Positions 6,199-64,000 of a DNA stretch of 64,000 nucleotides are shown piece by piece. The notes below the pieces were generated by a model that was not told the DNA's origin, did no database searches, and saw only the letters and a list, made by a program, of their open reading frames with translations. The stretch covers positions 2,235 to 66,234 of the IMG/VR virus record IMGVR_UViG_3300042356_000309; one strand, written 5' to 3'. Within the stretch, counting starts at the first letter, position 1, and every line of letters starts with the position of its first letter. The DNA comes from a virus (taxonomy: Duplodnaviria > Caudoviricetes). Made by a program: the position numbers and the translations under genes.

Positions 6199-6220
6199 AA
6201 CGGTCTTAATAAAAATTTTT

Positions 6221-8608: not shown

Positions 8609-8609
8609 C

Positions 8610-11863: not shown

Positions 11864-11962
11864 GTATTACAAGAAAGAAAATAATCAAGTCAAGATCAAA
11901 GAATTAGAAGAAAAGATTGCACAGCTTGATAAAAAGTAATACCTTTGGTAAAACAGAAGGTA

Positions 11963-12142
11963 ATGAACACTAACCTAGTTACATATGTAAACTCAACCAT
12001 GAACGAGTTCCACGAGCTCGGTTCAGATCTCTATGAGGCAATGATCGACATGGATCAAAAGGCTGTAAACGATACAGTTATTAAACTCAAGAAGATGTTG
12101 AGTGAAATACAAAAGTCCTACCATGAGGAAACAACTTTATGA
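11963..12142 (+). CDS. small helical hypothetical protein
   Basis: ORF track; ATG at 11963. Confidence 0.65.
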   Translation: MNTNLVTYVNSTMNEFHELGSDLYEAMIDMDQKAVNDTVIKLKKMLSEIQKSYHEETTL

Positions 12143-13292
12143 GTTAGCTCTAAAACTATATAGAGAAAGCACAATAACAAAATCAGAAGCCACCAGACGT
12201 GCGTGTGAGCATTTAGGAACACAATACTCAGACGTAATAAGAAGAAGCGTTAGCGACTATATTACATCTAAACTAGAAAAGGTTGATGAAGGTATAGTAA
12301 ATGCCTCTGAGTCTGTTGAGGTTAACTACGAGAACGTGCCACATCTTTGGCTAAAGACAAAGGGTGCATCGTTATTTGTAAAGAACCCCTGGCATGGCAC
12401 TAAGGATATAGACTTCCAGTCTGTCATAGACTCGTGTATGTCTGAGTATCAAGAAGTACCAAAAATTGGTATTCCTAAATCAAGGTCATTCGATAGACTT
12501 ATATGGACTGACGTTCATATAGGTATGGACGCACACGGAAATGGAATGTCTCTCTATCCAATGGACTGGAATGAGGAAACTCTAATGTCTAGGATAGATA
12601 TCATGGTTAATTTTGTCCTTGAGAACAAGTCATCTAACATACTTGTTATAGATGAGCTTGGTGACTTCATGGATGGATGGAACGGTGAGACTACCAGAGG
12701 AGGCCATAAGCTACCTCAGAACATGTCTAACCAAGAGGCGTTTGATGTTGGACTCAGAGCAAAGCTAAGGCTTGTTGATGCACTATCGAACCACTACAAG
12801 TACGTAACTTGTAACAACATATGCAACGATAACCATGCTGGTTCATTTGGGTATGTAGTTAACTCTGCGTTCAAGAGTATTGTTGACTGTAAGTACGATA
12901 ACGTTTCTATTAACAACTACAACAAGTTTATATCGCACTACGTGATGGGTGACCACTGTTTCATAATCACTCATGGAAAGGACGACAAGAACCTTAAGTT
13001 TGGATTTAAGCCTATGCTAGATCCAAGGACATCTGAGAAGATCTCTCAGTACATAAGACACAACAACCTATTAAACGAGTGTAAGTACATAGAGTTCAGC
13101 AAGGGTGACTCCCACCAGTGCCTGTTCGATATGTGTACGTCAGATGAGTTTGACTACTTTAACTTTCCTGCGTTCAGCCCATCATCACAGTGGGTTCAGA
13201 CTAACTTCAAGAAAGGTAGGTCTGGATTCGTGATGCAGAACGTAGACATGCACTCAGACAGGAAGAACATTAAACCGTTCTTCTTTAACTAA
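12123..13292 (+). CDS. calcineurin-like metallophosphoesterase
   Basis: DVHIG, LGDFMDG, NDNH, THG and GDSH metal-binding motifs. Confidence 0.85.
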   Translation: MRKQLYELALKLYRESTITKSEATRRACEHLGTQYSDVIRRSVSDYITSKLEKVDEGIVNASESVEVNYENVPHLWLKTKGASLFVKNPWHGTKDIDFQSVIDSCMSEYQEVPKIGIPKSRSFDRLIWTDVHIGMDAHGNGMSLYPMDWNEETLMSRIDIMVNFVLENKSSNILVIDELGDFMDGWNGETTRGGHKLPQNMSNQEAFDVGLRAKLRLVDALSNHYKYVTCNNICNDNHAGSFGYVVNSAFKSIVDCKYDNVSINNYNKFISHYVMGDHCFIITHGKDDKNLKFGFKPMLDPRTSEKISQYIRHNNLLNECKYIEFSKGDSHQCLFDMCTSDEFDYFNFPAFSPSSQWVQTNFKKGRSGFVMQNVDMHSDRKNIKPFFFN

Positions 13293-13318
13293 GAAAGGGC
13301 CTAATGGCCCTTTTTTTA
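13293..13318. terminator. bidirectional terminator between the convergent genome arms
   Basis: AAAGGGCC-TAAT-GGCCCTTTTTTT between the two stop codons. Confidence 0.85.
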
Positions 13319-16300: not shown

Positions 16301-19300
16301 AGTTCCATCCATTGAAGTTATAGTAGCCTTACCTCCGTACACTATAATCTCATCTCCCACCTTGTAAACGTCAGCCTCTTGTTCCTTGAATGGAATGTTC
16401 TCTTCAATAGGCGTTAGCTCCTTAACTGTCTGAGCTCTCAACTGGTCACCCTTCCACTTAGATACAAGCATATCGTACCCATTGTCAGCAGCCACCTTAC
16501 TGATCCATGCAGCCTGGTAGTTAGGACTGAATGCCTGTCCAGGACGTACTTCTAAGAACTGTCTTTTAGCTTCGTCATAGAAGTTTTCTTGGTCTTCCTG
16601 TAGGTAGTATACCTTGTCTTTAGGTACAACAACAGTATGAAGTACTGGACCAACTCCAGCCTCCTTCTGACCCTCCTGTGTATAGAACTGAGCAACACCT
16701 CCAACAGAGCTTAGTGCAGCTGCCTCGTCTCTACCAGTTATCATGTTATCTCCAGATCTAGGCTTGATGGTTTCTCTCTTCTGATTAGAGTAGTGATGGA
16801 ATATATAGTTTCCGTTACCGTCTTCAGTAAGTTTGTCAGCTACTTCCTTTTGAAGAGCCTTCTGTCTTCTTGGAGCAGGTCCTTGATCTTGTATTTTAGA
16901 TGTGTTTACTCTAAGTCCTCTAACAGAAACACCAGATGTTGGAAATATCTTATTCTCTCTTTCCTTAGATGCTACAATATCATTTGTCTCAAAGTCCTCA
17001 AATACTTCTGACCAATTAAACCTATCTTTTAGTATATGAAGAGTTACTTTATTATTAGCTTTTTCAGATTGAATTGCTTTTGGATATGATTCATGCTTAT
17101 CTGAATTAACATCTTTAACCTTACCTCTTAATTCTAACACAGCATAAACTTGTCCACCTTTATCCCTTTTAACTCCTTCTTTTAGCATAGGTTCAGTAAA
17201 CATCTCAGATAATGCTTGAGTCATGTTTGCTGCGGATATAGATAGCTTTCCAGTTTTTGTAATACCCTTAAAGTATTTATTTTGAATGCCTTGAGAAAAT
17301 AATTTTCCAAATTGTTCAACAGATTTAGGGTTTGATCTTATAACATTAGCAGCTTCTTTTATTAATTCTTCAACAAAAGTTTTTCTATCCTCAAATGATG
17401 TAATATCTGGATTCAATAATTCCTTTATTCTTGATGCTAAAATATCAACAGAATCTGATTTATTTAATTTAAATTGAGTTCCTAATCCAACAAGTTTTAT
17501 TCTATATTGTTTATTTCCTTTTTTATCAAGAACTGGTTTACCATCTTTCTTTATTAATGTCTTTTTTTCTCTTGTAACTTTTGCAGCATTATTAAGCATT
17601 GTTTTTAACTGAGATGGAGTTATGGAAAAATTCTTATCAAATGCCTTAGATAAAAAGAAATCAAGAACTGAGTTAGACATCGTAGTACTTGATAATAATT
17701 TATCATAAGGAGCAGTTGTAAGACCCATATAAATAACACCACCATTTTGTTCAAATACCTTGTTTAGATCTTTAGCCATTTTATTGGCCGTTTCATCTGT
17801 ACTTGCCCAAAAATAACCATCTTCATGAAATTTAATAGGATAGAATACACCTCCTTTACCTTCTACTAATATTTCTCCATCTTTATAAATCATTCCTGAG
17901 AAAGCTGCGTCAGGTTGATGAAGGAACATATATTCACCATTAAAATCTTTTATGGATTTATTTCTAGTTATGTATCCATCATCTTCAAGTTTCTTAAACT
18001 TATTTCCATTTTTATCAAATACAAATGTAAGTTTAGATACAAAGTCAGAAAAATTAGACTGGAATCTTTTATTTGCATTTGATATTTCAGTACTAGATTC
18101 AATTTTCTTTACATCTTTTTGTTTTATAGTCTTACCCTTAGCAGTCTTTCTAGCAATAGTAGTAAGTACATCGTAAACCTCATTCCTATTGAATGGATTT
18201 AATCCAAATGATTTAGCTATTCTGTCTATCCATCTCTTGATTACATCCTTAACAGATTCTGGAGCTTCCATATAATACTCAGACAACATACCAACTAACT
18301 CGGATACCTTTTCCTCGTTCTGTATATTCTCCTCGTATTGAGATGCAAAATCATCTAAGTATTTTTTTAACTTTGGATTACTATCTATCTTCTTAGATAC
18401 AGCCTCAATCATTTTTCTTGTAGTCAAAGCTGCATTTGCTTCAGTCTTAACTGCGTTAATAAGTACTGCATGGAATACCTCATGGGCTACAGTTCTTGCG
18501 TTAGCCTGTTCTAAGTTAATGTGTATCTCTCCAGTTGCAGGATCAAAATAACCTCCAGACTCAGTATCTCCAGCAATAGCAGCAAATGAATCCCGTGTAT
18601 CGTGAACAATGAACTTTGTGTTAGGTAGTATTCTAGAAACTGCCTTAGCTGCGTTAGCAACTATCTTAGCCATTCTAGGCTTAGATATCTGAGCAGCACG
18701 ATTTTCAATCTCTACGTCAGTACCAGATATAACTGTACCTGTTGATGATTGTGAAGGAGCAGTTTGCTCAAACACGTTTGGCAACCTTCCCTCTTTTAAC
18801 GCTTTTGCAATTTCCTTGAACTGAGCTCCACTAAACTGCATAGGATTTTTACCTGTACCTCCAGTCTTTACGTTCTGAAAAGACCCAAGATCAAATAGTG
18901 ATTCTTGATCTGCTAGTCTACCAAACTCAATGGCCTGCTCTCTAGATGACTCTGGAGCCACAACGTTTAGATCGATAGACATCTCGTTAGAGTTAGGGAA
19001 CTTATAGATACCTACCTTAACAGTTTCGTTGTCACCAATCTTATCTGCGTGCTGCTCAACGAAGTCTGCAATCATTTCTGGAGTAGCTTCCTCAACAGTT
19101 GTATTAATACTAACTACTGGTACAACTAATCCTACACCGTCATAAACTGTTCCATCAAGATTAAACGTTGCCCCATCCTCTGCTTCTGGAGTTACTGCCT
19201 TTACTCTTTCTAGTTCTTGAGAAGAGTTGGTAGCAATTGTAGGTTTGTCTATAACAACTTCTTCTGCAACAGGTTGTTGCACAACTGTTTCCTCCAAAGC

Positions 19301-22300
19301 AGCTAGTTCTGCATCATATTTAGCATTTACAGCTTCTTCAATGGTTTGGTCATTGTTAACTTGATAAGTTTCTTTAAGACCATCTTCTGTATAAGTATTA
19401 AGTTCTTCTTGTCTTCTTGTTTCTATATCAGCTTTCTGAGCCTCTACATCTACTACTTGCGTCTCCTGGAGCCCACCGCCTGCGATAGTGCTATCGCCAA
19501 GATTTGTTTCTGGCTGCGTGGCTTGCCCGACTGTCCCTTCTCCTTGCCCGACTTGAGGTTGTCCTTCATTAGTTCCCTCACGTTGTACGACACCGCCTTC
19601 TGCTGTGCCTTCTTGCTGCTGTTCTGTGCTTTTCTTAATGGCATTTTTAGATATTTTTTTTAGTTCATCATTAATCTGCTCTATCCTTTCTTTCTGGCCA
19701 GCAACTAGAGCCTCATCCTTACCAGCTATCTCTTCTTCTAGTTCTTGTTTTTCTAATAATAAGCTATATGACTCTATCTTATCAGAAGTAGATAATTTAT
19801 TTGGAATAGAATCCAATAACTCTCCAGTTTTTTTAACAAATTTTATCTTTGCATCAGCTTCATCTTTAGATATTTCTCCCTTTTGAAGCAGTATACCTAC
19901 ACTTGTTATATATGCATCCCTATTTCTTACATCAGATGTATAATCATAAAATTTCTTAAACTCTTTATTTGCAGATGCAGATGCCATCCTGTTTGTTACT
20001 ATGCTTGCACCATTAGACATCGTACCAAATATAGCACCACCTGCCATTCCTAAAACTACATTTTCAGCTAATGATGATATATACTCTTTTCTACCTTCAT
20101 CAGTACTAAGATCTGGAGCATCTTTAAAATAATCTAGATTATATGCAGCATTTATAGCTGCCTTCATTCCTCCTTCAAATATAAATTGAGTTCCTTCTGT
20201 ACCTCCTTCTGCAACTGCACCAACAGTAACATCAAACGCTCCAGCCGCAATAGCCTTTCCTATGTTCTTAGATATCTCCCTTTTAATAGTTTCTTCAGTA
20301 GCATCTTTTGGTAGGCCAGCTAATGATCTGCCTATTATAGATGTTATAACTCTTGAGTTAACTGGGGCCTTCATTTGTTCAAATCCATACTTCTCCAGCT
20401 TACCCATGACAAGTCCATAAGCAAAACCGTATGCATTTTTTTCTAATATTCCCATGTTGTCAAACTCTTCTGCTGTCATTTGCTCCCTCATGTCTGCATA
20501 TGCCCCAAGTATAAATCCAACTGATCCTCCAAGAGATGACCCCAAAGTTCCTCCAAGAGACCCTATAGCTTTTTCCCATATACTCCTATCTTCAGAAGAC
20601 ATCCATTCTGGAGTTGTTTCTTCCATAAATCCAAGTGATGACATAGTTTCTACACCAAGCTTTTTAGAATCTACTATAAATCTTGAAATGTCTCCATATA
20701 CCTTATTGTTTATTTCTTCTGGAGTCATTCCTTTTTCCAACATGTTATTATATAATGTTGGTTCTACAAAATTTTTAGCATCTAATCCTAACTTAACTAG
20801 ATCCGTCTCTACATACATAATAGCTTCAGCTATTCCCATAGATGCATCCATAAAATTAGATATAAATGAACCTACAATACCACCACTTTGTTCTCTTTCA
20901 AGAGAATTTAAACCTGCTGTTTTTTCTAGGCCTATAGATAGTTTATCTAAGTTTGCAGAAGATTGCTCGTAGTTGTATTTATCCTGCTCTACCTCTATTG
21001 TCTTTTTGTCTATTTCTTCTTGAGCTTTTTGAAAATCAAACGGATAATTTTTTATTACTTCAAGATTTTCATTTGCTAGATTTAAATATGTTTTATCTTT
21101 AGTTTTATCGTATTCTTTTTGATAATAATCAGCCTCTGCCTTTTTAGATTTTAAGAAGTCCTCCTCAAATCTTACTCTGCTTATGAGTCCACCTAAATCA
21201 TTGTTTGATTTTTGATATATTTTATATGCTGAATTAGATTGTTCTTCTACACTTTTAGCAATATTCTGCCACATGTCACCTCCTAGAGATACATTCTTAT
21301 CCATCATATTTTTATATACTGATGGGTTCCTGTATATCATATCGATCATTGCTCTCTCATACTCATCTTTATTTACAGCATTGATGTCTCCGTTATTAGA
21401 GTTAAACTTTCTCTCTAATATCCTAAAGTCTTTCTCTTTATTCCAAGTATCTATTAACCAGTCAGAAATTTCTTGAGGCGTGCTGTCTAGAGAAAATTTA
21501 TTTTGTCCAGGAGAGGTTATATTATCTCCATCTATAAAGAATCCATACTTATTCCAAAGAGATGAGTACTCTCCAGAATTTATTGATTTCTTTACATCAT
21601 CATAAAAATCAATATCTAGATTAGAAAAGTATTTTTCATCATCTTTATCTACTGTAAAGTATCTCTTTTTAGTTTCTCCGTATACCTCTTTCTTTTTTTC
21701 TATTTCTTTTTCAGCTTCACTCTGAAGGTAATTCCACTCTCCCCAATAATTTTGATTATAATAAAGATATGCCTTACCCATATCTATCTCTTCACCCTCT
21801 AAGCTATACATCTTTGATCCGTCTGGACTTTTATATGTATTCTCCTGTATCCATTCTGGGAATGATGGGAATTTTTTATAAGATTTTCCAGAAATAAATT
21901 CATGAAATTTATCAACAGCAGATTTGTTTGATTCATTTATTTCTTTCTGTATATCTATCTTTGTTTTTAAGTTCTCAGTAAATCCTTTTGTACGTCTCTC
22001 TATTTCTTCAAACTTACTTCTTGCTGGATCAATAACAGCTTCAGTGAACCACTCTATTAATTTTTTTCTTGGTTTTTTAATAGATTTACCATCTAAATAA
22101 ACCGTAGCCTCCTCCATTGTTTCTTTAAACTGACCTGTTTCTGGATCATATAATGACCCAGATGTCATATAGTCTCTAGTTGAGGCATACTCTAGTTCCT
22201 TTCCTACAGGAACCATAGCAGGTATAAGCCCAGACTGTCTTAGTAAGAAGGCTGTTCTTTCAGCGTCATTGGTCAATGAATTATACTCTTGTAGTTGCTG

Positions 22301-22894
22301 AATAGCTTTAGATGATGAGTTTGGATCGTACTCCCCCTTAGCAAATTTTTGAAAATCTACTTGACCTAACTTTGCAGCATTTTGCAAGTCCATAAGCATT
22401 TTTTCTTTGGGACTCATTTCATAGTTGTCCAAAACGCCCATTTGCTTCCTCCACTCTCTATCTGCAATTTGAGAGTTCCAGTCTGTTTCTTGAAGATTAC
22501 CCTTTAGTACTTCATCTTTTTCTATAGCATTTTGTACAGGGTATAGAATATTTTCTTTGTATTCTTGATCTGGACTTTTAGTAGTTGTTGTATCTACGTT
22601 TCTTTGCAAAGACGAGGATACCGAAGGCTCTGGCATCCCCATTTCTGGTGTAGCCAATGAACCACTTGTTGGATCTTCCATTGATGGTGATACCAACTCT
22701 TCTTTTTTTTTTAATGGTGTATACTTTATGTCAAAAGTTTCAAAGTCAGTACTTTCAATACCGTCTCTAGTAAGTACACCGTGTACCTTTTTTCTGTAAA
22801 TAGGGTCATTAAGCTGGTCTTCAAACTCACCTAATGTTTTTGTGTAGTAACCTCCTTCTGATAACTTATTGTATAAATCTTCTACTAACGCCAT
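13316..22894 (-). CDS. giant polyvalent internal virion/ejection protein (3192 aa) with SAMase-like, HExxH metallopeptidase, ART-like and LPD38-like domains
   Basis: Last gene of the ejection-protein cluster; GxFxP...IHIN...HEVFH...EE, HHYS...FYT...GYD and DFNQGG...PYFNAGMQG motifs. Confidence 0.85.
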   Translation of the reverse strand: MALVEDLYNKLSEGGYYTKTLGEFEDQLNDPIYRKKVHGVLTRDGIESTDFETFDIKYTPLKKKEELVSPSMEDPTSGSLATPEMGMPEPSVSSSLQRNVDTTTTKSPDQEYKENILYPVQNAIEKDEVLKGNLQETDWNSQIADREWRKQMGVLDNYEMSPKEKMLMDLQNAAKLGQVDFQKFAKGEYDPNSSSKAIQQLQEYNSLTNDAERTAFLLRQSGLIPAMVPVGKELEYASTRDYMTSGSLYDPETGQFKETMEEATVYLDGKSIKKPRKKLIEWFTEAVIDPARSKFEEIERRTKGFTENLKTKIDIQKEINESNKSAVDKFHEFISGKSYKKFPSFPEWIQENTYKSPDGSKMYSLEGEEIDMGKAYLYYNQNYWGEWNYLQSEAEKEIEKKKEVYGETKKRYFTVDKDDEKYFSNLDIDFYDDVKKSINSGEYSSLWNKYGFFIDGDNITSPGQNKFSLDSTPQEISDWLIDTWNKEKDFRILERKFNSNNGDINAVNKDEYERAMIDMIYRNPSVYKNMMDKNVSLGGDMWQNIAKSVEEQSNSAYKIYQKSNNDLGGLISRVRFEEDFLKSKKAEADYYQKEYDKTKDKTYLNLANENLEVIKNYPFDFQKAQEEIDKKTIEVEQDKYNYEQSSANLDKLSIGLEKTAGLNSLEREQSGGIVGSFISNFMDASMGIAEAIMYVETDLVKLGLDAKNFVEPTLYNNMLEKGMTPEEINNKVYGDISRFIVDSKKLGVETMSSLGFMEETTPEWMSSEDRSIWEKAIGSLGGTLGSSLGGSVGFILGAYADMREQMTAEEFDNMGILEKNAYGFAYGLVMGKLEKYGFEQMKAPVNSRVITSIIGRSLAGLPKDATEETIKREISKNIGKAIAAGAFDVTVGAVAEGGTEGTQFIFEGGMKAAINAAYNLDYFKDAPDLSTDEGRKEYISSLAENVVLGMAGGAIFGTMSNGASIVTNRMASASANKEFKKFYDYTSDVRNRDAYITSVGILLQKGEISKDEADAKIKFVKKTGELLDSIPNKLSTSDKIESYSLLLEKQELEEEIAGKDEALVAGQKERIEQINDELKKISKNAIKKSTEQQQEGTAEGGVVQREGTNEGQPQVGQGEGTVGQATQPETNLGDSTIAGGGLQETQVVDVEAQKADIETRRQEELNTYTEDGLKETYQVNNDQTIEEAVNAKYDAELAALEETVVQQPVAEEVVIDKPTIATNSSQELERVKAVTPEAEDGATFNLDGTVYDGVGLVVPVVSINTTVEEATPEMIADFVEQHADKIGDNETVKVGIYKFPNSNEMSIDLNVVAPESSREQAIEFGRLADQESLFDLGSFQNVKTGGTGKNPMQFSGAQFKEIAKALKEGRLPNVFEQTAPSQSSTGTVISGTDVEIENRAAQISKPRMAKIVANAAKAVSRILPNTKFIVHDTRDSFAAIAGDTESGGYFDPATGEIHINLEQANARTVAHEVFHAVLINAVKTEANAALTTRKMIEAVSKKIDSNPKLKKYLDDFASQYEENIQNEEKVSELVGMLSEYYMEAPESVKDVIKRWIDRIAKSFGLNPFNRNEVYDVLTTIARKTAKGKTIKQKDVKKIESSTEISNANKRFQSNFSDFVSKLTFVFDKNGNKFKKLEDDGYITRNKSIKDFNGEYMFLHQPDAAFSGMIYKDGEILVEGKGGVFYPIKFHEDGYFWASTDETANKMAKDLNKVFEQNGGVIYMGLTTAPYDKLLSSTTMSNSVLDFFLSKAFDKNFSITPSQLKTMLNNAAKVTREKKTLIKKDGKPVLDKKGNKQYRIKLVGLGTQFKLNKSDSVDILASRIKELLNPDITSFEDRKTFVEELIKEAANVIRSNPKSVEQFGKLFSQGIQNKYFKGITKTGKLSISAANMTQALSEMFTEPMLKEGVKRDKGGQVYAVLELRGKVKDVNSDKHESYPKAIQSEKANNKVTLHILKDRFNWSEVFEDFETNDIVASKERENKIFPTSGVSVRGLRVNTSKIQDQGPAPRRQKALQKEVADKLTEDGNGNYIFHHYSNQKRETIKPRSGDNMITGRDEAAALSSVGGVAQFYTQEGQKEAGVGPVLHTVVVPKDKVYYLQEDQENFYDEAKRQFLEVRPGQAFSPNYQAAWISKVAADNGYDMLVSKWKGDQLRAQTVKELTPIEENIPFKEQEADVYKVGDEIIVYGGKATITSMDGTVATFKGERMSGSIDTKRNATSITKARRQKGLKNVKALDILDENKKYIKERTKKTKAKDLAEEYIQKFEDRQADAKRALRNIAGVYSKRALNLLVNKAGASGWANERFKEAQKKIYGRKLNRNLLLSVKDMDLLNAMIYAKRIIAINKNRAERGMKPYKGMDGYSTAEAQADLQEIKNAIGDKKYADFENRTNEYFKVYEENLRNAFKSGRINEETYNTLKDIEYSPIKTLKYIIGEDQFTSTEIDTMSKTLGIKSDDIKRLGDENENAFASDTRWLMMMAINASERKNFENKLLNAINDSIENATDIEKQALSEIFLDNPVIGKTKTGSLIYKYDKNKIPLGYKEVIFYKKGVKRKMIVKNKYADQILDLNNVPDTLKQIGKLSGGSLLRFFATSGNPFFILGNVPADFSNILFLSDVYGKMPIIGKFYGAPHLAFDFVKNFLRASFGIKYKNIKREYLEHGGAMDYMSSDGIRQLLSKEYTIEVFGLPVLSLPRKTLVTYAKVVSYLGEKSEEAFRLSVYEKTKSDLIKKYKKENNGLDPQGQDLEDIMHDAVREAREVIDFNQGGEYAKNIDAVMPYFNAGMQGLRRTREYATKNPYGFASNMIQGSIMSAGIAAYSISVLLQRACAEAEDEDDCNKKMMDAINSIPEYEKANYHIIFTGEKDENGEYKYKRIKKLPGLSVITTFAEQMITKFFFSSRGVDYDVNNDIFWNTVKSSVPFYPENVLGKNPLVAAGIAYGLNYDTFRGEKIFKQQRGWENRVISPEYEGINDDNVNSLFKTIAPIFGMSPIRTQAMVEKIITSESTNPTLSILYAVANGMFDDKTDMGEAFSIATDEFIKNTSRKLVRSTNKNLLDKKEQDRIAEMLIEENDEEYYNTTKTYDDIKDIYDSGKELNVGELLDMIDERFKPVTKSELDSYYNKYNNYINNMSLDRRLLNIVFENKPKLQALYMYERYGASLDDEELDELNTIMKQTNSRISKTALIYYNENFKNK
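19453..19644 (-). CDS. nested out-of-frame small basic protein (MPL-K...KQxxAIALSxA type, DUF6496-like)
   Basis: Resembles a common stand-alone phage gene; A-rich start context AAAAAAATATCTAAAAATG; the host frame is a low-complexity linker here. Confidence 0.7.
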   Translation of the reverse strand: MPLRKAQNSSKKAQQKAVSYNVRELMKDNLKSGKEKGQSGKPRSQKQILAIALSQAVGSRRRK

Positions 22895-55308: not shown

Positions 55309-57312
55309 TTATTTCTTACTAAATCTTCTAGCTCCAGCCTGCATATTACCTTGGCTTGATGAGTATTGTCTAGCTCCAGTTTTTATGTTTTTACCAGCCT
55401 CTAGAATTTTTCCAAGTTTAACATTTTTACCACTCTTAGCATACTCCTTTATATCTGACTTAGTCATTAACTTAGGCTCTTTATACTTAGCAACATCAGC
55501 AGCACCTTTTAGAGGTATTGTTTTGTTTAGCTCTGTCATACTAAAGTAACTAGTTCCTCTCATTGTTTTACCCTTAGCTGTTTTTCTAGCTTTTTTAGCT
55601 TCACTAGCTGTTGCAGCAACATTAATTGCTCTGGTATCCTTCTTCTCCATACGAAGACCCTTTCTGATATCACCTTTGAATGATCTAGCTTCTTTAGCAA
55701 CTCCTCTGGTTCCTTTAACTCCAGTTCTGATCATTTTCTTCTCTTCAGCAGTTCTCTTCATGCCTCTAGCCTCTTTCATAGCAGTACGTGCAGATGACTT
55801 CATTGCCTTGATCTCAGCAGGAGATTTTGCAGACTTCATTGCCTCAAGATCTTTTGCTAGTCCAGCAGCACTTGTGTCCTTACTAAACTTCTTAGGAGCC
55901 TTAGCAGCTTTAGCCTCAGCCATCATTGATTTAGATTTTGCAATAGCTCTACCTTTAGCACTTCCTTCAGTTCTAATTCCCTTAACTTGACCTTTTGATA
56001 GTTTACCTATTTCCTTAATATCTGCCTTAGCTCCTTTTAATGAAGATACTCTTTCTCCAGATGACGATGATAAGTTTCCTGTAAGTTTTTCACCTTTTAT
56101 TGCTCCAGTTTTTCTTTCAACACCTTTATCGTCTTTGTATGTCATAGAATCAGAGTCATACAATGCCTTTAAATCTTTAAGTCTTTGAGCTGAACCTTCT
56201 TGAAGTTTTTCACCACGCTTAACTGCCGTACCATACTTATTAGCTTGATCCTTAAGTGCAACTCCACTCATTCCAAGAACTCGTTCCCTTGCACCTGCAA
56301 GTTTCTCCTCCTTCTTGTACTTCATTCTTTCGGAAAGTCTTGCGTTTTTAACTTTTGTTGTAGTTTGTGTAACAACCCCTCTTCTAGAACGGTTCCAGCC
56401 TGGTTTATCTAGTCCAGTAATTCTTTCAACTAAATCAGTGTCTTTCCAATCTTTTACCCTTTCTTGCTTAAAAGGCATATTCAACTTTGCGGCAAGTGAA
56501 TCTTTATAGTCAAAAGCTAACTTTTTTTTACTCTTAGTTCTTCCTTTAGGACCAGAAACAGTCTCTGGAACCTGTATATCTCTTTCAGCTTCCTTGTCTT
56601 TTGTGATAAGATTAGGTTGCTTTAACTTTCTCTCATCAATAGCCTTTTGCTTAGCCTTTGCAGCAAACTTACTTCCTGTCTTAACTAGCTCCTTTCGTTG
56701 TGGAATCTTGTTCTTCTCTGGGTTTCTTGGTATCAGACCAGCGTGCAAGCTTCCAGAGAATCCCCAGTCGTCACCTGCCTGTGAGTATGGATTGTATGCA
56801 TCGTATTCTTTTTGACTTTTAAACTCATCTCTAAACTTATCAGTAGTTGGTTTTTTACCAGCTTTCAACCAAGCGTTATACATTGACTGAGATAGCTCTA
56901 CGTCTTGATCACTAGATCCCATAGAATCAAGATTAAGCTGCTTCCTTAGTAACTCCTGGTCCTCATCTGGAATATCAGCTATAGTCATGTCTGCATCTGG
57001 ATGACGGTAGTCGTACCACTTATCTGCTTTAGGATTCTTGCTTGTTCTCTCCTTTCTACTTCTAGTGTCCTCTCCAACTGTAAATGTGTCTGACCTAACT
57101 TGTGGGCCTAACATTCCTTGGTTTACACCTTGATACTGAACCTTAGACCCCTTATCTAGCTTAGCAGGCTCTCCCTCTTTTGGTTTTGCCTTGATACCTA
57201 CCTCACCAAGCATCTTCGGGCTAGACGATGTCTTCCCATCGTTCGATGTCGTCTTTGTTACAGCACGACCCATACGTGTACGTGCTGTAGACATTTTACT
57301 TCTTACTGCCAT
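55309..57312 (-). CDS. very Lys/Arg-rich 667-aa protein (candidate DNA-condensing/internal protein)
   Basis: ORF track; K/A/R/G-rich low complexity. Confidence 0.7.
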   Translation of the reverse strand: MAVRSKMSTARTRMGRAVTKTTSNDGKTSSSPKMLGEVGIKAKPKEGEPAKLDKGSKVQYQGVNQGMLGPQVRSDTFTVGEDTRSRKERTSKNPKADKWYDYRHPDADMTIADIPDEDQELLRKQLNLDSMGSSDQDVELSQSMYNAWLKAGKKPTTDKFRDEFKSQKEYDAYNPYSQAGDDWGFSGSLHAGLIPRNPEKNKIPQRKELVKTGSKFAAKAKQKAIDERKLKQPNLITKDKEAERDIQVPETVSGPKGRTKSKKKLAFDYKDSLAAKLNMPFKQERVKDWKDTDLVERITGLDKPGWNRSRRGVVTQTTTKVKNARLSERMKYKKEEKLAGARERVLGMSGVALKDQANKYGTAVKRGEKLQEGSAQRLKDLKALYDSDSMTYKDDKGVERKTGAIKGEKLTGNLSSSSGERVSSLKGAKADIKEIGKLSKGQVKGIRTEGSAKGRAIAKSKSMMAEAKAAKAPKKFSKDTSAAGLAKDLEAMKSAKSPAEIKAMKSSARTAMKEARGMKRTAEEKKMIRTGVKGTRGVAKEARSFKGDIRKGLRMEKKDTRAINVAATASEAKKARKTAKGKTMRGTSYFSMTELNKTIPLKGAADVAKYKEPKLMTKSDIKEYAKSGKNVKLGKILEAGKNIKTGARQYSSSQGNMQAGARRFSKK

Positions 57313-57314
57313 TG

Positions 57315-57698
57315 TTATCCTCTTTTAGTAGATGTTAACTTAGATACAAACCTCTTAAATTTACCAGGCGCAGTTACCTTTACCTCTGGCAACATCTTAG
57401 CCTTAGGCTTCTGCTGTGTAGGCATAATCGTACCAGTCTTAACTGCCTTACGTGCGATCTTTGGTTTAGGCATATATATACCTGCCGATGAACCCATGGT
57501 CATAGCATTCTCAACTTGTTTATATGCATTCTTAAAGAAACCTCCTTCTGGAGCAGAAACTTCTTTCTTCATACCCATTGACATTGGCTTAGATGATTTA
57601 CCTTTACCAATGTTCTTTACTCCCTGTCCTACAGACTTGGAGTTAGTCAACGTGCTCATCGGAGTCACGGTGCTTGCTTTTGTTACTTTTCTGATCAT
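57315..57698 (-). CDS. Lys/Met-rich basic protein
   Basis: ORF track, operon spacing. Confidence 0.7.
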   Translation of the reverse strand: MIRKVTKASTVTPMSTLTNSKSVGQGVKNIGKGKSSKPMSMGMKKEVSAPEGGFFKNAYKQVENAMTMGSSAGIYMPKPKIARKAVKTGTIMPTQQKPKAKMLPEVKVTAPGKFKRFVSKLTSTKRG

Positions 57699-57710
57699 TG
57701 TTATATATGT

Positions 57711-58088
57711 TTAGCGTCCTCTTCTGGTCATTGGTTTATTACTAGGCTTAGGAAGACCTGCCTTCTTAATAGTTGTGTAAGTAGATTTTTTAGCATCTCT
57801 CTCAGCTTTGTTATTAGCAATGTTCATCTTTACATTACCAACAGCTTCTTTAAACTGTTTTCCAATTTGCTTAATAGAACCCTTAACAGCAGTCGCTAAT
57901 GGACCAGGTCTGTTCATACTTTTTAGCTGATTCCCAGCGTTCTCAGATGCTTTCTTTTTAGCATCATCCATTTTTTTCTTTTTCATAGCAGCTTGAATAC
58001 CAGATCCTATTCCAGTATTGCTGTATGCAGAGCTTCCTTGTGATGCCTTTGGCATCTTCGTGCTCATCGCAGTTACCATTCTTTTCAT
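57711..58088 (-). CDS. Lys/Met-rich basic protein
   Basis: ORF track; TACATTTG at 58121-58128 upstream. Confidence 0.7.
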   Translation of the reverse strand: MKRMVTAMSTKMPKASQGSSAYSNTGIGSGIQAAMKKKKMDDAKKKASENAGNQLKSMNRPGPLATAVKGSIKQIGKQFKEAVGNVKMNIANNKAERDAKKSTYTTIKKAGLPKPSNKPMTRRGR

Positions 58089-58132
58089 AACATGTTATAT
58101 TTTTAAAGTTTATCGATATGCAAATGTAATAA

Positions 58133-58279
58133 TTATTCCTCACAGTTCATTCTGTGATACCTACAGTTTAATGATGCGTAGTACTGATCCCAGTCCTTCT
58201 GACGCTTCTTAGACCTCTCAGCGTAGCTTGTGCTGACTTGTGACGGCTTAGTGTTGAGTTTGTGCTGCCTTTTTTTCAT
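58133..58279 (-). CDS. small basic hypothetical protein (48 aa)
   Basis: Hand translation MKKRQHKLNTKPSQ... Confidence 0.4.
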   Translation of the reverse strand: MKKRQHKLNTKPSQVSTSYAERSKKRQKDWDQYYASLNCRYHRMNCEE

Positions 58280-58287
58280 CTATTGTA

Positions 58288-58521
58288 TTGATTATTAGTT
58301 AGTTACGTGTTTTTGTGTCGAAATGACGACAGGGGGCTCAGAAAAAAAATATTTTTTTTATTTATTTCTATAGTCTCTTTATATATATAATTATTTTTTT
58401 TTTTTTAATTTGTAAATATAGTAACATCTTAACACTAAAATAGCTATAACCATTATAAATAAAGAGATATAGAGCTTTTCAACTAAGCATTTAGTCAGCA
58501 CTAAATGGCAAATCTTGACAC
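58288..58521. repeat. degenerate inverted copy of 1271-1517
   Basis: AATCTTGACAC, TATAGTAACATCTtAaCACTAAAA and TTGATTATTAgTTAGTTA blocks. Confidence 0.75.
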
Positions 58522-58527
58522 TAATCG

Positions 58528-58641
58528 CTACTTCTTGACACGGATCTTCGGTAGTGACTTCTTTAGTGAAGGCTTCTTAACGATCAATCTCCTAAGACTA
58601 GGATTCTTCAACCCCTTTATTTTTGGCTTCAAACTTTTCAT
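58528..58641 (-). CDS. 37-aa protamine-like peptide
   Basis: MKSLKPKIKGLKNPSLRRLIVKKPSLKKSLPKIRVKK; TAACTTTG 4 nt upstream. Confidence 0.55.
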   Translation of the reverse strand: MKSLKPKIKGLKNPSLRRLIVKKPSLKKSLPKIRVKK

Positions 58642-58791
58642 ATAGCAAAGTTAAAAAATTAGTCGCATATTCTGGGGTGGGGGGTAATATATACAATTTC
58701 ACGTGAACATACGATAAAGGAAACGAGTTCAAAATGAGCATGGGGGTATACATTTCTATAGATTTCTCTGAACTTTTTAGCTTTTTGCCTA

Positions 58792-59069
58792 GCATGTAGG
58801 CATGCACGCACACATGCACGCACGTCACACGTGCACATCGCACGCACGCACATACGTCACGCATGGACGTACACGCACACGCATACACACATGAGCATGT
58901 GCACACAAGCACGCATACATGTACGCATGTACATGAGCGAGCGCACATATGTACGCACATACATACACACATGCATGTGAGCGTACACACATACACACGT
59001 GCACACATAAGCGCAGGCATACACACATACGCACATCACGTCATGCACACACGCACACATCACGTGCGT
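58792..59069. repeat. non-periodic alternating purine-pyrimidine tract (CA/TG/CG/TA mosaic)
   Basis: Direct reading, e.g. CATGCACGCACACATGCACGCACGT... Confidence 0.95.
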
Positions 59070-59258
59070 CCGCTCGGTTCGTTTATGCGCTGAGGTTTCT
59101 TTTTTGGGCGCATGTCTTCAGACAGGAAATCACAACAGCACCCATTTCCCCCCGTCAAAATGTATGGTAACACACATTTAGCTAAATTTTTTTTCATTTT
59201 TTTCTCGTTGATTATCAGTGAGTTACGAATTATTTTCACTTGTGGTGTTACCTGTCGT

Positions 59259-59289
59259 GTTACTTTTTGTTTCTTTTCACATTATACTA
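59259..59289 (+). promoter_or_regulatory. putative early promoter GTTACTTTTT-N11-CATTATACTA, copy 1
   Basis: Identical boxes and spacing at 59510-59540. Confidence 0.65.
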
Positions 59290-59509
59290 TCAGAACACCG
59301 AACGAGGTGACACAGATTTGACAAGCGACACACATGGGGATGAACAACAAGACCTTCAGTCTAGTCAGCGTATGCGACAGCACTAGTGAAAGTAATGAGG
59401 GCACGGAATAGTAGTCTACTGAGAACGAACATGGATGCGATGATACGAGCTACATAGATTGAAATTGCTTAGTAACATCAGTCAAACAAAAAAAATTTTA
59501 ATGCAGGTT

Positions 59510-59540
59510 GTTACTTTTTCAAGCAGGTTGCATTATACTA
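59510..59540 (+). promoter_or_regulatory. putative early promoter, copy 2
   Basis: Same as copy 1; followed by a boxA-like sequence. Confidence 0.65.
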
Positions 59541-59551
59541 GAAACAACACA

Positions 59552-59563
59552 GTTCTTTGACAT
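59552..59563 (+). promoter_or_regulatory. boxA-like antitermination element GTTCTTTGACAT
   Basis: Resembles the rrn/lambda boxA consensus; 11 nt after promoter copy 2. Confidence 0.55.
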
Positions 59564-59991
59564 AACGATACAACGATTAGCACATTTAATCATGGCACAT
59601 AAGACGAGTAATACCCCTAGCTGATAGGTTTCGCAGTCGTAGGTAACAAAGCATCCTACTAATCATAGCAACGGCAATGTGAATCAGATTGTATCAAAAG
59701 TAATAGATTGCTCGGATGATAGAGATATCATCTAACGTAGGAGCAAAAAAAAATAATTAATCACTATGGGGGCGGAAAAACAATTAATCCCTATAGGAGT
59801 AAAAAATAATTAATCACTAACGGCATAAGTGCCGTAACAACATCTAATGTATAACAAAGGTAATGATGTATGAACACTATACGTAATTGTATATAGCATG
59901 TGGCTGTCATTGAATGTTATACAAGCGAACAATTCCTTTCGGTGGTGGGATAACCGACTAGTAAATAGGGAGAGACAAACCAATCTCTCCC

Positions 59992-60040
59992 GTGTCATGT
60001 GGTGTGTGCCACATCTGATGAGTTCGAAAGAACGAAACAC
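59992..60040 (+). ncRNA. hammerhead ribozyme, type III
   Basis: GUGUC / AUGUGG-ugugug-CCACAU / CUGAUGA / GUUC-gaaa-GAAC / GAAACAC; full core, all three stems paired. Confidence 0.9.
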
Positions 60041-60068
60041 ATTATTAACCAATTAAAAAACAATCACC

Positions 60069-60191
60069 ATGAAAGCAATTAACAGAATCGTAGACGTAGT
60101 TTTTTTAGGAATCTTAACTACAGCATTAGCACTAGCAATCTTAATGATTGTAACTGGTAACGTCCATGCATCATTCACGAATGTAGGGTAA
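60069..60191 (+). CDS. small single-TM early protein (40 aa)
   Basis: MKAINRIVDVVFLGILTTALALAILMIV...; conserved leader. Confidence 0.6.
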   Translation: MKAINRIVDVVFLGILTTALALAILMIVTGNVHASFTNVG

Positions 60192-60219
60192 TTTATTAAT
60201 CAATTAAAACTTAGAAATC

Positions 60220-60387
60220 ATGAACGAATTAATCAACAGAATCAAGCACGACATCAAGCAAGCTGAGGCAAGAAGAGATGCATTTGAAAAAGGTACAAGG
60301 GAGTATGGTTTTAATCAAGGTATTGTATCCGCATTAAAAACAGTTTTATTCGACATGCGAGAATTAAGGTTAACTGATGAGTCTTGA
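60220..60387 (+). CDS. small early protein (55 aa); 3' end overlaps a hammerhead
   Basis: Hand translation ending RLTDES; TTAGAAATCATG leader. Confidence 0.6.
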   Translation: MNELINRIKHDIKQAEARRDAFEKGTREYGFNQGIVSALKTVLFDMRELRLTDES

Positions 60388-60419
60388 GTAGACGAAAGGG
60401 GATGTATCCCCTCTTAACC
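60368..60419 (+). ncRNA. hammerhead ribozyme, type I
   Basis: GGUUAA / CUGAUGA / GUCU-ugagu-AGAC / GAAA / GGGGA-ugua-UCCCC / UC / UUAACC. Confidence 0.9.
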
Positions 60420-60436
60420 AAATAAAATACACCACC

Positions 60437-61696
60437 ATGAGTAAAGTAATCAAAATTGAAGGAGCTTATGAGATTATAGGCTTCTACGTGAATGACGTAT
60501 TAGTTAGAACTACGAAGAGAAGAGTAACTAACTGGAAGTAATTGTTTAACCAAATAAAATTTAGAGTCATGGACAGAGACATCAAGATGTTCTTAACGGC
60601 ATCAGTAACACTAGCAATTGGGATAGTATCAATGGTATACTACGGACTAAACTATTAACCAAATAAAACTTAGAAATCATGAAAACATTTTTTGTAACAA
60701 GCGTATACGCTGATAGTGTACTAGACACATATAAAATTAAAGCTGTAGATGTAAGCGAAGCAATCAAGAAAGCTAAAAATAAACTAGCAAAGATTACTGG
60801 TAAAAGCTTTGCTGAGAGATGTGAGTACTTGACAAAGTAAATTATTAACCAAACAAAAACCAAACACCATGAAATCAACATTCAATTCATTAGTATCGAT
60901 GATACCATGTGCGGATAAACAACTGATGTTGTCCGCACTATATGACAAAGCGACAACCGTACAGAAGTTAGAGTTGATTGTATCACTAGAAGACTTCTTA
61001 GGAATCGACAAACAGAACATAGTTAAGAACTTTTTAAACCAATCGAGATGACAATTGACAAAGGAATAATCATAGCAACAGGACAGGAAGTTGTTATACG
61101 CAGAAAACAAATGGGACGATACTTGATCGAATTCCCGAACGGAATGACATATTGGTATTCACGAGATAAAATTAGAGAGATATGAAAAGCGAGAAAGAAT
61201 TAATCAGAACACTATTGTTTTATGCTGAGATGCTATCAGATAAGAATTCATCAGAGAAATTTCAGAATGAATACAGCAGGCTATCGTTAACGTTTGACTA
61301 CTACACGAGAGCAATTGAAGAGGCAAGAGAGTACATGACCAATCAAAAATAAACCACCATGAAACGATTAAAAGACATCAGAGAGGGCACGTTAGTACAA
61401 CTTGCCAACAGCATCCTTGAGTACTACATTCGAGGGAAAGCTAGCAACGGACGTGTAAAGCTTGTATGCTTCACGACAAAGCACGAGAGGTATTCACACC
61501 TTGATTGCTCATTAACTAAAGATACTAAAGTTATAATCTATAAGCCATGAAAAGAAGAATGTTATTGATATCGCTTGGCATGTTTGCCATGGGTATTGTA
61601 TGTTCGATGCAGGACATCGAAGAGGCAGGAGTAATGTATGTAATGGGTACATTATTCATGATAAAGAGTATGAACTTTAAAAGCTATAAGCCATGA
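60437..61696 (+). other. array of tiny early ORFs: 60437-60541, 60569-60658, 60679-60840, 60869-61051, 61048-61185, 61182-61352, 61359-61550, 61547-61696
   Basis: Each begins at a conserved leader or an ATGA overlap; two are hydrophobic. Confidence 0.6.
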
Positions 61697-61786
61697 CTAA
61701 CACACAGCGATTGATACTCATTGGCTTGGGTAGGACAATGAGGAATTATATTAATAGATTTAACTAACAAATAAAAATTAGAAATC

Positions 61787-61978
61787 ATGAAAGAATACAC
61801 AGCAACAATTAAATGGCTAGACAGCCAAGAGATGCAAGATGTCATCATAAAGGTAGGTGACGTAGATGAAAATGACGATAACATATTCTTTTATTTTGAT
61901 TCCGAAAATGAAATAGAAGAATTCAAAACAGAAGGAGTTAACGATTTTGTAATAGTAGATTTTTTACCAAACATTTAA
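61787..61978 (+). CDS. acidic early protein
   Basis: ORF track; DDxIFFYF motif. Confidence 0.7.
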   Translation: MKEYTATIKWLDSQEMQDVIIKVGDVDENDDNIFFYFDSENEIEEFKTEGVNDFVIVDFLPNI

Positions 61979-61990
61979 AAACTAGAAATC

Positions 61991-62305
61991 ATGAAAACAA
62001 TAAAAGAAAACAACAGACTGATTGCAGAGTTTATGGGTATGCAGGAGACTAAAATAGGATGGTATGACGCTGAAGAAAACCTGTCACTCGGATATACATA
62101 CTTTGATAATACATTTGACGAGTTGTTATTTAATAAGTCTTGGGATTGGTTGATGCCAGTAGTAGATGCTATATACAATATAGATATTGATGAGCAAGCA
62201 ACAAATGAAATTGGCGACATTACTCATGCTTTATTGGACGTAAATATAAACGCAGTGCATGAAGCAGTAGTAAACTTTATAGAATTTTATAACAAACAAA
62301 ACTAG
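61991..62305 (+). CDS. conserved phage protein (NxLIAEFMG...SWDWLMPVV)
   Basis: ORF track and recognisable motif. Confidence 0.75.
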   Translation: MKTIKENNRLIAEFMGMQETKIGWYDAEENLSLGYTYFDNTFDELLFNKSWDWLMPVVDAIYNIDIDEQATNEIGDITHALLDVNINAVHEAVVNFIEFYNKQN

Positions 62306-62310
62306 AAATC

Positions 62311-62580
62311 ATGGAAAAATTTGCAAGACGTTGTGATGCTACTGGACGTGGTATGAACGAAGGATACGTAGTAGGAGATGGAGAACGTTACTTCTCTGAG
62401 AAACAGCATTTAATAGATTGGCTAAGAAGTAGAGGTGGTATGGATGAATTGTCTGATGAGTTTATATTGAACGAATCATACGAGTTAGAGGAATACTACT
62501 ACACCGAATGGGACGAAGAAATAAACGAAAACAACTACGATTGTTACTACGATGAGGAAGGTAACGAGTATGAATTTTAA
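62311..62580 (+). CDS. acidic conserved phage protein (ARxCDxTGxGMNEG...YYTEW)
   Basis: ORF track and motif. Confidence 0.75.
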   Translation: MEKFARRCDATGRGMNEGYVVGDGERYFSEKQHLIDWLRSRGGMDELSDEFILNESYELEEYYYTEWDEEINENNYDCYYDEEGNEYEF

Positions 62581-62592
62581 AACCAAACCACC

Positions 62593-62982
62593 ATGGAAAC
62601 AAAGAAAATTAAGTTCGGTCTACTATACACAAGTAGCAAACAACTAGTGAAGTTCTGCACTGACAATAGCAAGCATTCAGATGAAAAATCTGTAGCAAAC
62701 ATAATGATTAAAAGAGTAATCACTGAAGAGGGATTCGAATACTCATGGAAAGGTATAAAGTCATGGTTACATGACTACGCAGACTACATGAATGCAGATA
62801 TGTTTGACGACAGAGATGACCACACGCCCGAGCAGTTGACATCATACATATCAGATATGATTGTATACTCAAATGCTCCTCACATCATCAGACTTGAGAC
62901 ATCAACTGAGGTTAATTCTGATTTCAAGAATAGTGTCATGTACGAAATAGAGAAAATGCTTGACAAAGCTTTAACCAAATAA
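62593..62982 (+). CDS. hypothetical early protein
   Basis: ORF track; conserved leader. Confidence 0.65.
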   Translation: METKKIKFGLLYTSSKQLVKFCTDNSKHSDEKSVANIMIKRVITEEGFEYSWKGIKSWLHDYADYMNADMFDDRDDHTPEQLTSYISDMIVYSNAPHIIRLETSTEVNSDFKNSVMYEIEKMLDKALTK

Positions 62983-62993
62983 AAATAATCGCC

Positions 62994-63155
62994 ATGAAGA
63001 GGGTAACATTAAACACCAAGTTGACCATGCAGGGATGGACAATAACAGGAGAATACCTACTGATAGGTAACTTCAGCAATCTCATTGACAATGCGACATG
63101 GTATGTCGTAATGGATGAGATGACAAACGAAACATTTATAATTGATAACTACTAA
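62994..63155 (+). CDS. hypothetical protein (53 aa), homolog of 401-559
   Basis: Hand translation; shared TITGEY motif. Confidence 0.7.
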   Translation: MKRVTLNTKLTMQGWTITGEYLLIGNFSNLIDNATWYVVMDEMTNETFIIDNY

Positions 63156-63166
63156 ACAAAATCGCC

Positions 63167-63538
63167 ATGAAAAATCTATTAAACTTCTGCACTGCTATCT
63201 TGGAAGATGGTGGTGCAACATTCAACCTAGCAACAGGTACATCTCCTGCAAGCGGATACATCGTGAGCGAGGCAGGTCATGAGGTAGTAATGCCTATGAT
63301 GAAGAACGAAGTCGCCAATCAGATATTCGTTACATCGGCAGTACGTCAGTACATCAGTGACAAGGGATTCGAGCTATCATTGGTAGAGAACTACCTTGGT
63401 GCATGGGTAGACAAGAACAAGCTGTACTTGGACATCAGCCGTGTATACGACAACGAGGAAGAAGCACGAGAGATGGCAATCAAGAACAATCAGATTGCAT
63501 ACTTTGATTTAAACACCTTAACAAGTAAGAACGTATGA
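63167..63538 (+). CDS. 123-aa putative SAM lyase-like protein, homolog of 571-942
   Basis: Same length and motifs as 571-942. Confidence 0.6.
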   Translation: MKNLLNFCTAILEDGGATFNLATGTSPASGYIVSEAGHEVVMPMMKNEVANQIFVTSAVRQYISDKGFELSLVENYLGAWVDKNKLYLDISRVYDNEEEAREMAIKNNQIAYFDLNTLTSKNV

Positions 63539-63780
63539 AGACAGGAAAGATAATACCGTCCGTTGGTTTCGGGAAAACTGACGGGCACATCAGAAAGCTG
63601 ACGATAGTTGAACAGCTACGGCAGATAGTTATGAGCAGGACAGATGGCACAATCGATCATCCTGCACATGGAAGGATACCTGTATCGTTAGAGCAGGCAG
63701 AACTATTCAAGGACTTTCCCGAGCAGTATCTGACATTGTTTCACCATAAAACCTTCAGCCATGATGACAATAATTCTTAA
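63535..63780 (+). CDS. hypothetical protein absent from the 401-1031 variant block
   Basis: ORF track; ATGA coupling. Confidence 0.55.
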   Translation: MKTGKIIPSVGFGKTDGHIRKLTIVEQLRQIVMSRTDGTIDHPAHGRIPVSLEQAELFKDFPEQYLTLFHHKTFSHDDNNS

Positions 63781-63856
63781 GATAATTTTCGTGTGTTTCG
63801 TATCTTTGTTTCTGATAGAGAAGTTTATCAAGTTCATTGAGAAGCACGGATACTAA
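63764..63856 (+). CDS. 30-aa single-TM peptide, homolog of 939-1031
   Basis: Hand translation. Confidence 0.7.
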   Translation: MTIILKIIFVCFVSLFLIEKFIKFIEKHGY

Positions 63857-63873
63857 CAATAAAAACTACGGCC

Positions 63874-64000
63874 TATGTACCAAGCAGTAATAATACCTTA
63901 CGGAGTACCCGAAGAGTGGGTACTAAATGTTTTGTTCGGGAACACAGACGAGGAGCGATTAATGGAGATAGCATCTCAGCTCCTCGAACTTGGTGTTAGG
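63874..64000 (+). repeat. 127-bp exact repeat of 1042-1168 (circularisation/assembly overlap)
   Basis: Base-by-base identity. Confidence 0.95.

Follow-up and report, generated by a model that had tools for sequence, protein, structure and literature searches.

The 66,234-base virus record analyzed here encodes a terminase, a portal, virion proteins, a GroEL, a primase-helicase, and an ORF of 3192 aa, and represents a 61-63 kb podophage of the Flavobacteriia type from lake water. Its cultured relatives infect Flavobacteriia; those that match best by terminase (31-42% identity) have hosts in Flavobacterium, Cellulophaga, Maribacter, and Tenacibaculum. The TerL of MW202828.1, an uncultured spring phage, is 67.5% identical. 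Coordinates below refer to the window (i.e., the whole stretch of DNA that was analyzed, 64,000 nt), which follows the first 2.2 kb of the record. Leftward ORFs extend from 13316 to 58279 and rightward ORFs from ~60069, plus 1-13292. Between them lies a gene-free hub at ~58.1-60.0 kb, with the leftward structural arm on one side and the rightward early arm on the other, and a tract of alternating purines and pyrimidines (RY) at its center. The features of the hub are as follows:

58345 to 58445, no strand: AT-rich block, 84-92% AT
58410 to 58440: 31-nt non-coding element in the AT-rich block, found letter for letter in contigs of three relatives
58625 to 58791, no strand: left hub flank, ~98% identical to a copy at the record start
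58646 to 58653, minus strand: TAACTTTG, putative promoter box facing the leftward arm, from a motif reading
58674 to 58694 and 58740 to 58751: G-run boxes of the left flank, GGGGTGGGGGGTAATATATAC and ATGGGGGTATAC, respectively
58698 to 58706: TTCACGTGA, left flank
58773 to 58789: border box CTTTTTAGCTTTTTGCC, left flank
58792 to 59069 (core 58800 to 59069), no strand: RY-alternating simple-sequence tract, allele A, seen in spanning contigs and in a homologue (L008)
59070 to 59258, no strand: right hub flank with the border CCGCTCGGTTCGTTTATGCGC and TTCAGACAGGAAATCACAAC, ~85% identical between alleles A and B
59259 to 59287, plus strand: first copy of the bipartite promoter-like motif GTTACT-N16-ATTATAC, a motif match
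59510 to 59538, plus strand: second copy of GTTACT-N16-ATTATAC, both halves repeated at a spacing of 251

We infer the hub promoters from motif matches alone. TAACTTTG is what we take to be a −7 promoter box of the Bacteroidota type (consensus TAnnTTTG), and GTTACT-N16-ATTATAC matches the window twice against 0.06 expected, both times on the plus strand and to the right of the tract. The first-pass annotation of this DNA had placed the tract between the leftward TAACTTTG box (58646) and the rightward motif (59259); it does lie there, and the gene arms do diverge, the promoters being motif matches. The border motifs of the right flank recur in four relatives (L021, L027, L035, and L036). As a separate observation, the 31-nt element at 58410-58440 is exact in relatives, although the adjoining 667-aa protein is just 62% identical in one of them (L003).

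How unusual is the tract within this DNA? Across the 278 nt from 58792 to 59069, 91.3% of steps alternate between purine and pyrimidine, compared with a mean of 48.6% for the 64-kb window. A 100-nt scan of the window reaches 0.75 or more solely at 58768-59100 (maximum 0.94), with the runner-up place at 0.72. Ranked by length, the first eight perfect RY runs of the window (39, 29, 27, 27, 26, 20, 19, and 19 nt) all fall inside the tract, which has ten such runs of 13-39 nt; the longest perfect run elsewhere in the window measures 15 nt. On the plus strand the tract contains 92 C, 90 A, 55 G, and 41 T (C+A 65%), and its steps include CA (67), CG (25), TG (18), and TA (16). Tandem Repeats Finder detected no head-to-tail single unit in the tract—only weak fragments of 2-16 copies with 60-100% match and scores of at most 68—and the tract leans mildly toward a period of 4/8 (lag-8 identity 0.49 vs. 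0.43 ± 0.026 in RY-preserving shuffles). The 24 breaks in the alternation are patterned: purine triplets like GAG, AAG, AGG, or GGA account for nine of them, and single T-C steps that shift the phase for six. These values bear out the near-continuous alternation, the absence of a fixed repeat unit, and the CA-rich plus strand described at first pass. The accompanying statement that the genome otherwise lacks such sequence holds for the 64-kb window but not for the record's other 2.2 kb, which carry a second, different RY-rich tract. We regard it as secure that the tract is genuine, non-coding, "cryptically simple" DNA.

That the tract is genuine follows from independent assemblies. Logan contigs of four lake or freshwater runs—one perhaps the source of the record, three from other studies—were placed on 57000-64000, and in all four runs one contig bridges both flanks of the tract. 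The contigs of X1 (58720-59558), X4 (58587-59152), and X17 (58720-59217) show no differences, and that of X11 (58595-59244) shows seven, just one of them within the tract (58806 A>T, an alternation-breaking transversion). Across runs from 2020, 2021, and 2024 the tract is the same or almost the same. The contigs of the four runs show no tract indels and so no population length variation, but contigs drop rare variants and minor length variants may exist. The poly-A/T stretch at 58337-58415 is without contig cover in some runs, and two RNA runs, X19 and X20, contain just a small share of the words. L008, an IMG/VR contig from another sample, has the same flanks around a homologous tract of 91% identity. 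A chimera of the phage assembly with eukaryotic microsatellite DNA, the danger raised at first pass should reads fail to span the tract, would account for its resemblance to degenerate CA/TG microsatellites and for Rfam matches to mouse repeat-derived microRNA models. It is almost certainly wrong, and we consider it refuted: single contigs join both flanks in every run, three of which are not the likely source, and in other samples, as in a GenBank record, these flanks enclose a homologous or analogous tract.

The hub is repeated in the first 712 bases of the record, where the left flank is ~98% alike, the right flank ~85%, and the tract different (allele B: TA/CA-rich, 84% alternating). The first 125 nt of the record (L002 1-125) are exactly window 58625-58749, and its last 127 nt (63874-64000) are exactly window 1042-1168. 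The 4.7 kb after tract A are collinear with the 3.4 kb after tract B at 74-89%, a B-type tract directly adjoins the leftward arm in another contig (L004/L019), and contigs of the four runs extend up to 878 nt beyond the window end. The exact end overlaps and the collinear arms identify the copy at the record start as an allele of another strain that co-occurs, and rule it out as a second hub of one genome or as a physical end. The public record thus appears to be a linearized de Bruijn bubble of two strains and not one genome, a point to bear in mind wherever it serves as a reference. The assembly was presumably made at k = 127, from which the start overlap of 125 nt departs by 2 nt. Two co-occurring strains with one hub each are implied, of ~62.8 kb (allele A) and ~60.9 kb (allele B).

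Do relatives carry such a tract at their hubs? The leftward GroEL arm of MW202828.1 and its rightward arm have between them a CG/CA-rich alternating tract of ~160-220 nt (peak 0.91), with unrelated letters. In a GroEL-anchored survey of 84 IMG/VR loci (1.33 Mb), a stretch with RY alternation of at least 0.75 was found in 11 loci, one per locus and without exception at the hub; nowhere else in the 1.33 Mb is 0.75 reached. In 8 of these 11 tracts the same strand has a C+A content of 0.59-0.73, and in none is it below 0.46. Forty-five of the 84 loci have a match to a box made up of a G-run and TTTTT(G/A)GCTTTT, many of the other 39 having little upstream DNA; extra matches of the short box pattern in the relatives' records were mostly uninformative. 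The 45 box-bearing loci collapse to 35 distinct hub tracts. Eight of these reach an alternation of at least 0.75 (two being the A-like and B-like relatives), and 27 consist of non-RY simple sequence or of ordinary sequence, the hubs of one subclade having ordinary conserved sequence instead of simple sequence. Lag-4 identity is at least 0.40 in 17 of the 35 hubs, against a background of 0.28 ± 0.04; non-RY hubs carry runs such as CCTACCTA, GGTAGGTA, CGGTCGGT, GAGCGAGC, and CGTTCGTT, and the unit families in relatives' hubs include CTAC, GGTA, CGGT, GAGC, CGTT, and GCCT. The marine cultured relatives Elemo 6-9C and Cellulophaga phi46:3 have no RY tract, a blastn search of the hub against GenBank phages gave no match, and neither did a 27-mer of the left flank against viral contigs. 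Metagenome matches of a 20-mer from the right flank (L005 and L006) were rejected as chance hits within bacterial membrane-protein genes. The expectation that relatives keep an RY bias in other letters at the same place is therefore true of MW202828.1 and of 8 of the 35 distinct hubs but not of the remaining 27, which means that alternation is dispensable for whatever the hub does.

In two relatives the hub tract has beside it the 12-nt palindrome TATGCRYGCATA, present in four exact copies per relative (L045 1452-1536 and L061 388-675). The copies are candidate operators, confined to the L045/L061 lineage.

The mode of change can be read from two pairs of close relatives. Tract A differs from its L008 counterpart by 17 transitions, 6 transversions, and indels of 4, 4, 3, 1, and 4 nt, while the left non-coding DNA of the same pair has 21 transitions and 17 transversions. 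Tract B differs from that of L004 by 11 transitions, 7 transversions, and indels of 8, 2, 4, 4, 1, 3, and 1 nt, and the two share an exact core of 148 nt. The excess of transitions in the pooled tracts (28:13, vs. 37:25 in the flanks) is not significant (Fisher P = 0.41), so there is no significant sign that substitutions have been filtered for alternation. Nor is the tract hypervariable: it diverges no faster than its flanks (91-94% vs. 88-93% identity). In the B pair the flanks are 88-93% alike, the left one 88%, and the exact core of allele B despite such left flanks points to sequence constraint or recent exchange. Tracts of close relatives differ by ordinary substitutions and mostly 4-nt indels, which suggests slippage in 4-nt steps as the visible mode of length change. 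In distant relatives the tract's place in the hub persists and its letters, often also its repeat flavor, are replaced; even where GroEL identity has dropped to ~52%, these otherwise compact genomes retain a tract of 100-300 nt at one place. The proposal that the property rather than the sequence is selected receives a mixed answer from these comparisons: unrelated RY tracts at the hub speak for it, whereas the 27 non-RY hubs, the insignificant transition excess, and the 148-nt exact match speak against it.

Could the tract instead be read or bound? A protein-coding gene (e.g., the minus-strand ORF of 140-142 aa at 58598-59026) or a non-coding RNA is highly improbable. Long ORFs do traverse the tract on both strands, and MW202828.1 has an annotated CDS over its own tract; however, each of the six frames has 1-2 stops per 92 codons, and because alternation nearly excludes stop codons, ORFs over the tract arise automatically. 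Their translations are runs of Cys, Val, His, and Thr without a PHROG hit, and the indels relative to L008 are not multiples of three. As for RNA, Rfam returned only microRNA families of the CA/TG-repeat kind, far below threshold and rejected as low-complexity artifacts, and folding was no better than in shuffles (z-scores 0.25 and −1.24). The CDS in MW202828.1 ("hypothetical protein," L011 42896-43219) is, for the same reason of missing stop codons, probably an automatic ORF too. A degenerate array of protein-binding sites or a restriction/modification decoy, the latter having been suggested at first pass, also seems very unlikely. In favor of binding sites, CACGTG occurs five times in the window, four of them in 58600-59100 and one of these in a conserved flank box, and two relatives have the repeated TATGCRYGCATA; yet no copy of TATGCRYGCATA with up to one mismatch is present in this tract. 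The decoy claim fails on counts, since palindromes are fewer than in RY-preserving shuffles (4-mers 34 vs. 45.3 ± 5.8; 6-mers 11 vs. 17.6 ± 4.0). The rest of the genome shows no notable avoidance of GTAC, ACGT, or GCGC (observed/expected 1.05, 0.78, and 0.84), and the genuinely avoided CGCG and CCGG are missing from the tract as well. CGCG occurs 0 times there against 2.3-7.5 expected (probability of none 0.0006 under RY-preserving shuffles), which indicates that selection reaches the tract.

The avoidance itself extends over the window and the record's first 2.2 kb, which together contain no CGCG and no CCGG, ~79 of each being expected in the window from base composition. Both words are also absent from several relatives (L008, L019, L060, and L061); MW202828.1 has 54 CGCG and no CCGG, and L035 has 26 CCGG. 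The pattern looks like lineage-specific avoidance of restriction sites.

Z-DNA propensity, a check proposed at first pass, singles out the tract as the only Z-DNA-capable DNA in the window. We used the B-to-Z dinucleotide energies given in Table 1 of PMC3024258, with a flat Z-Z penalty and a simplified single-site calculation. On these tabulated energies, all 93 of the 24-nt windows in the 64 kb that cost at most 1.6 kcal per dinucleotide lie in the tract, where the B-to-Z cost is 1.15-1.7 kcal per dinucleotide. The perfect segments are predicted to flip at a superhelical density (sigma) of −0.037 to −0.060, depending on domain size, by this simplified one-site estimate. RY alternation over at least 8-12 bp, the sequence criterion for a Z-former, is present in the tract as well; by sequence and modeled energy it is a predicted Z-DNA former, the sole such DNA in the window.

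What, then, might the tract be for? We tentatively favor, with a little less than even confidence, a structural spacer able to absorb negative supercoils between divergent transcription units, as the energy model suggests. Slipped-strand events of 4 nt would build and remodel the spacer, and in this lineage each unit would happen to be, or be kept, purine-pyrimidine alternating. The element would act via DNA physics and not through a read-out of letters, and would keep the two divergent, motif-predicted promoter sets apart. Its perfect segments of 19-39 bp would flip into the left-handed form at sigma of about −0.04 to −0.06, and that flip would absorb negative supercoils made between the arms by divergent transcription. 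The tract is long and located where divergent transcription should underwind DNA most. Its built-in comparisons—two co-circulating alleles and the non-alternating tracts of relatives—make a role of DNA shape at a divergent hub testable by swaps. A bolder version would have the tract as a selected non-B-DNA element, a natural "flipon" of 280 bp by which supercoiling would couple early and late transcription or insulate them from each other, and which maybe marks an end or origin. It would then stand for an undescribed class of structural spacers in a large clade of freshwater flavobacterial podophages, whose lineages switch between Z-prone RY and other four-base flavors; this we consider quite improbable.

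Two further accounts deserve weight beside the structural spacer, and the three are not mutually exclusive. The tract may be a neutral by-product, i.e., unconstrained hub DNA in which 4-nt slippage and point mutation have generated cryptic simplicity, its alternation being accidental and functionless. Loops from 4-nt slippage are poorly handled by mismatch repair, and the period-4 bias, the 4-nt indels, the many unit families in relatives, the limitation of RY to 8 of 35 hubs, and the lack of a significant transition excess are all as such an origin would have it. Against it stand the near-constancy of the tract in the runs from 2020, 2021, and 2024, a divergence no faster than that of the flanks, and the retention of 100-300 nt at one place in compact genomes down to ~52% GroEL identity. 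The many different units of the tract, moreover, all alternate in few phases, and 8 of 11 tracts are C+A-rich on one and the same strand. On balance we hold a wholly neutral origin possible, though on the unlikely side. Somewhat less likely still is that the tract forms part of a physical genome end (a short direct terminal repeat or a concatemer junction) or a replication origin. On this view a circular assembly would join the ends of the linear genome at the hub, or replication would begin there, and the simple-sequence tract would be a terminal or origin spacer; T7 has repeat arrays beside its terminal repeat. A weak hint of the packaging or genome-end role suggested at first pass comes from depth: in three of the four runs the contig with the tract has a word depth 2.0-2.3 times that of both arms, contig depths being no copy numbers (hub vs. 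arms: X1 127 vs. 74/54; X4 14.3 vs. 6.3/6.15; X11 66 vs. ~30). The cumulative GC skew has its minimum at 59299 and likewise at the hub of MW202828.1, the AT block of 84-92% and the G-run boxes are close by, and the early genes begin directly past the hub. Short terminal repeats are predicted for Gundel, a distant relative, in a passage of PMC8776804. However, the skew minimum coincides with the switch of gene strand, and skew tracks gene orientation anyway; hubs shared among co-occurring mosaic strains could raise the depth too. Contigs of complete-length relatives pass through the hub, the hub box of G010, a relative classed with terminal repeats, lies at 39.8 kb, far from the ends, and the ends of the record itself are k-mer overlaps with internal sites. 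A search for iterons yielded no clear family in this hub. The hub contigs at raised depth span 58587-59558, an observation that either a terminal repeat or a hub shared by mosaic strains could cause.

How does the tract compare with known systems? By the criteria of those classes, it is neither a tandem or phase-variable repeat nor a gene nor a known RNA, and no account of a phage tract of this kind turned up in a literature search. To our knowledge, few natural tracts prone to forming Z-DNA have been shown to play a role in bacteria or phages. Rahmouni and Wells reportedly observed supercoil-driven Z-DNA in alternating purine-pyrimidine inserts near promoters on Escherichia coli plasmids. Like such engineered inserts, the tract is alternating, lies upstream of or between outward transcription units, and has a computed flip at physiological sigma; unlike them, it is natural, 278 bp long, non-periodic, CA/TA-rich instead of (CG)n, interrupted by 24 defects, and known from sequence alone. 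Cryptic simplicity denotes degenerate microsatellites in non-coding DNA. The shuffled short units, period-4 bias, slippage-sized indels, and lineage-wise replacement of sequence fit that description, whereas the fixed place in a compact phage genome, the stability over years, and a divergence no faster than that of the flanks do not. Podophages of the T7 and N4 types have gene-free terminal regions with short repeat arrays. Here, too, gene-free simple or repeated DNA directly precedes the first early promoters of a podophage with early and late arms; the differences are that the record ends are assembly overlaps, that relatives' contigs cross the hub, and that the present case is known from contigs. 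In Haemophilus, a phase-variable (TA)n separates the divergent hifA and hifB promoters. The tract resembles it as simple sequence between divergent (here motif-predicted) promoters and departs from it in having no pure unit, no length variation in the four runs, and a position ~150-190 nt from either promoter motif, outside the promoter spacer. A loose association is that DRT3 defense makes poly(dCdA)/(dTdG) duplex DNA, according to a passage in a preprint (10.64898/2026.05.04.722794).

Several other elements were observed around the hub and in the arms. A 27-nt element (TTGATTAT.AGT.AGTTACG...), preceded by TTTTTTTCAT, occurs at 58288-58314 and 59208-59234 in direct orientation, 920 nt apart; its right copy heads a leftward ORF of 45 aa that is not kept in allele B. 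At the head of the early arm, both alleles have a motif resembling a type III hammerhead ribozyme (window 59989-60043, plus strand; L002 994-1048, plus strand), with the full CUGAUGAG...CGAAAC core, a GUC site, and a paired change between the alleles in stem III. Its scores of 33.5 and 36.5 bits (E = 8.6e-5 and 1.2e-5, respectively) are below the gathering score of 48.5. A leader, AACCAAWYAAAA, matches six times within 60047-62984 of the window against 0.07 expected, always on the plus strand and ~10-15 nt upstream of the start codons of small early ORFs, where there is no Shine-Dalgarno sequence, as expected for Bacteroidota. Finally, the 3192-aa ORF (13316-22894, minus strand) at the end of the structural arm, which has no Pfam or PHROG match, has giant counterparts at the equivalent place in MW202828.1 and in Elemo phage 6-9C, annotated as structural or under unrelated names.
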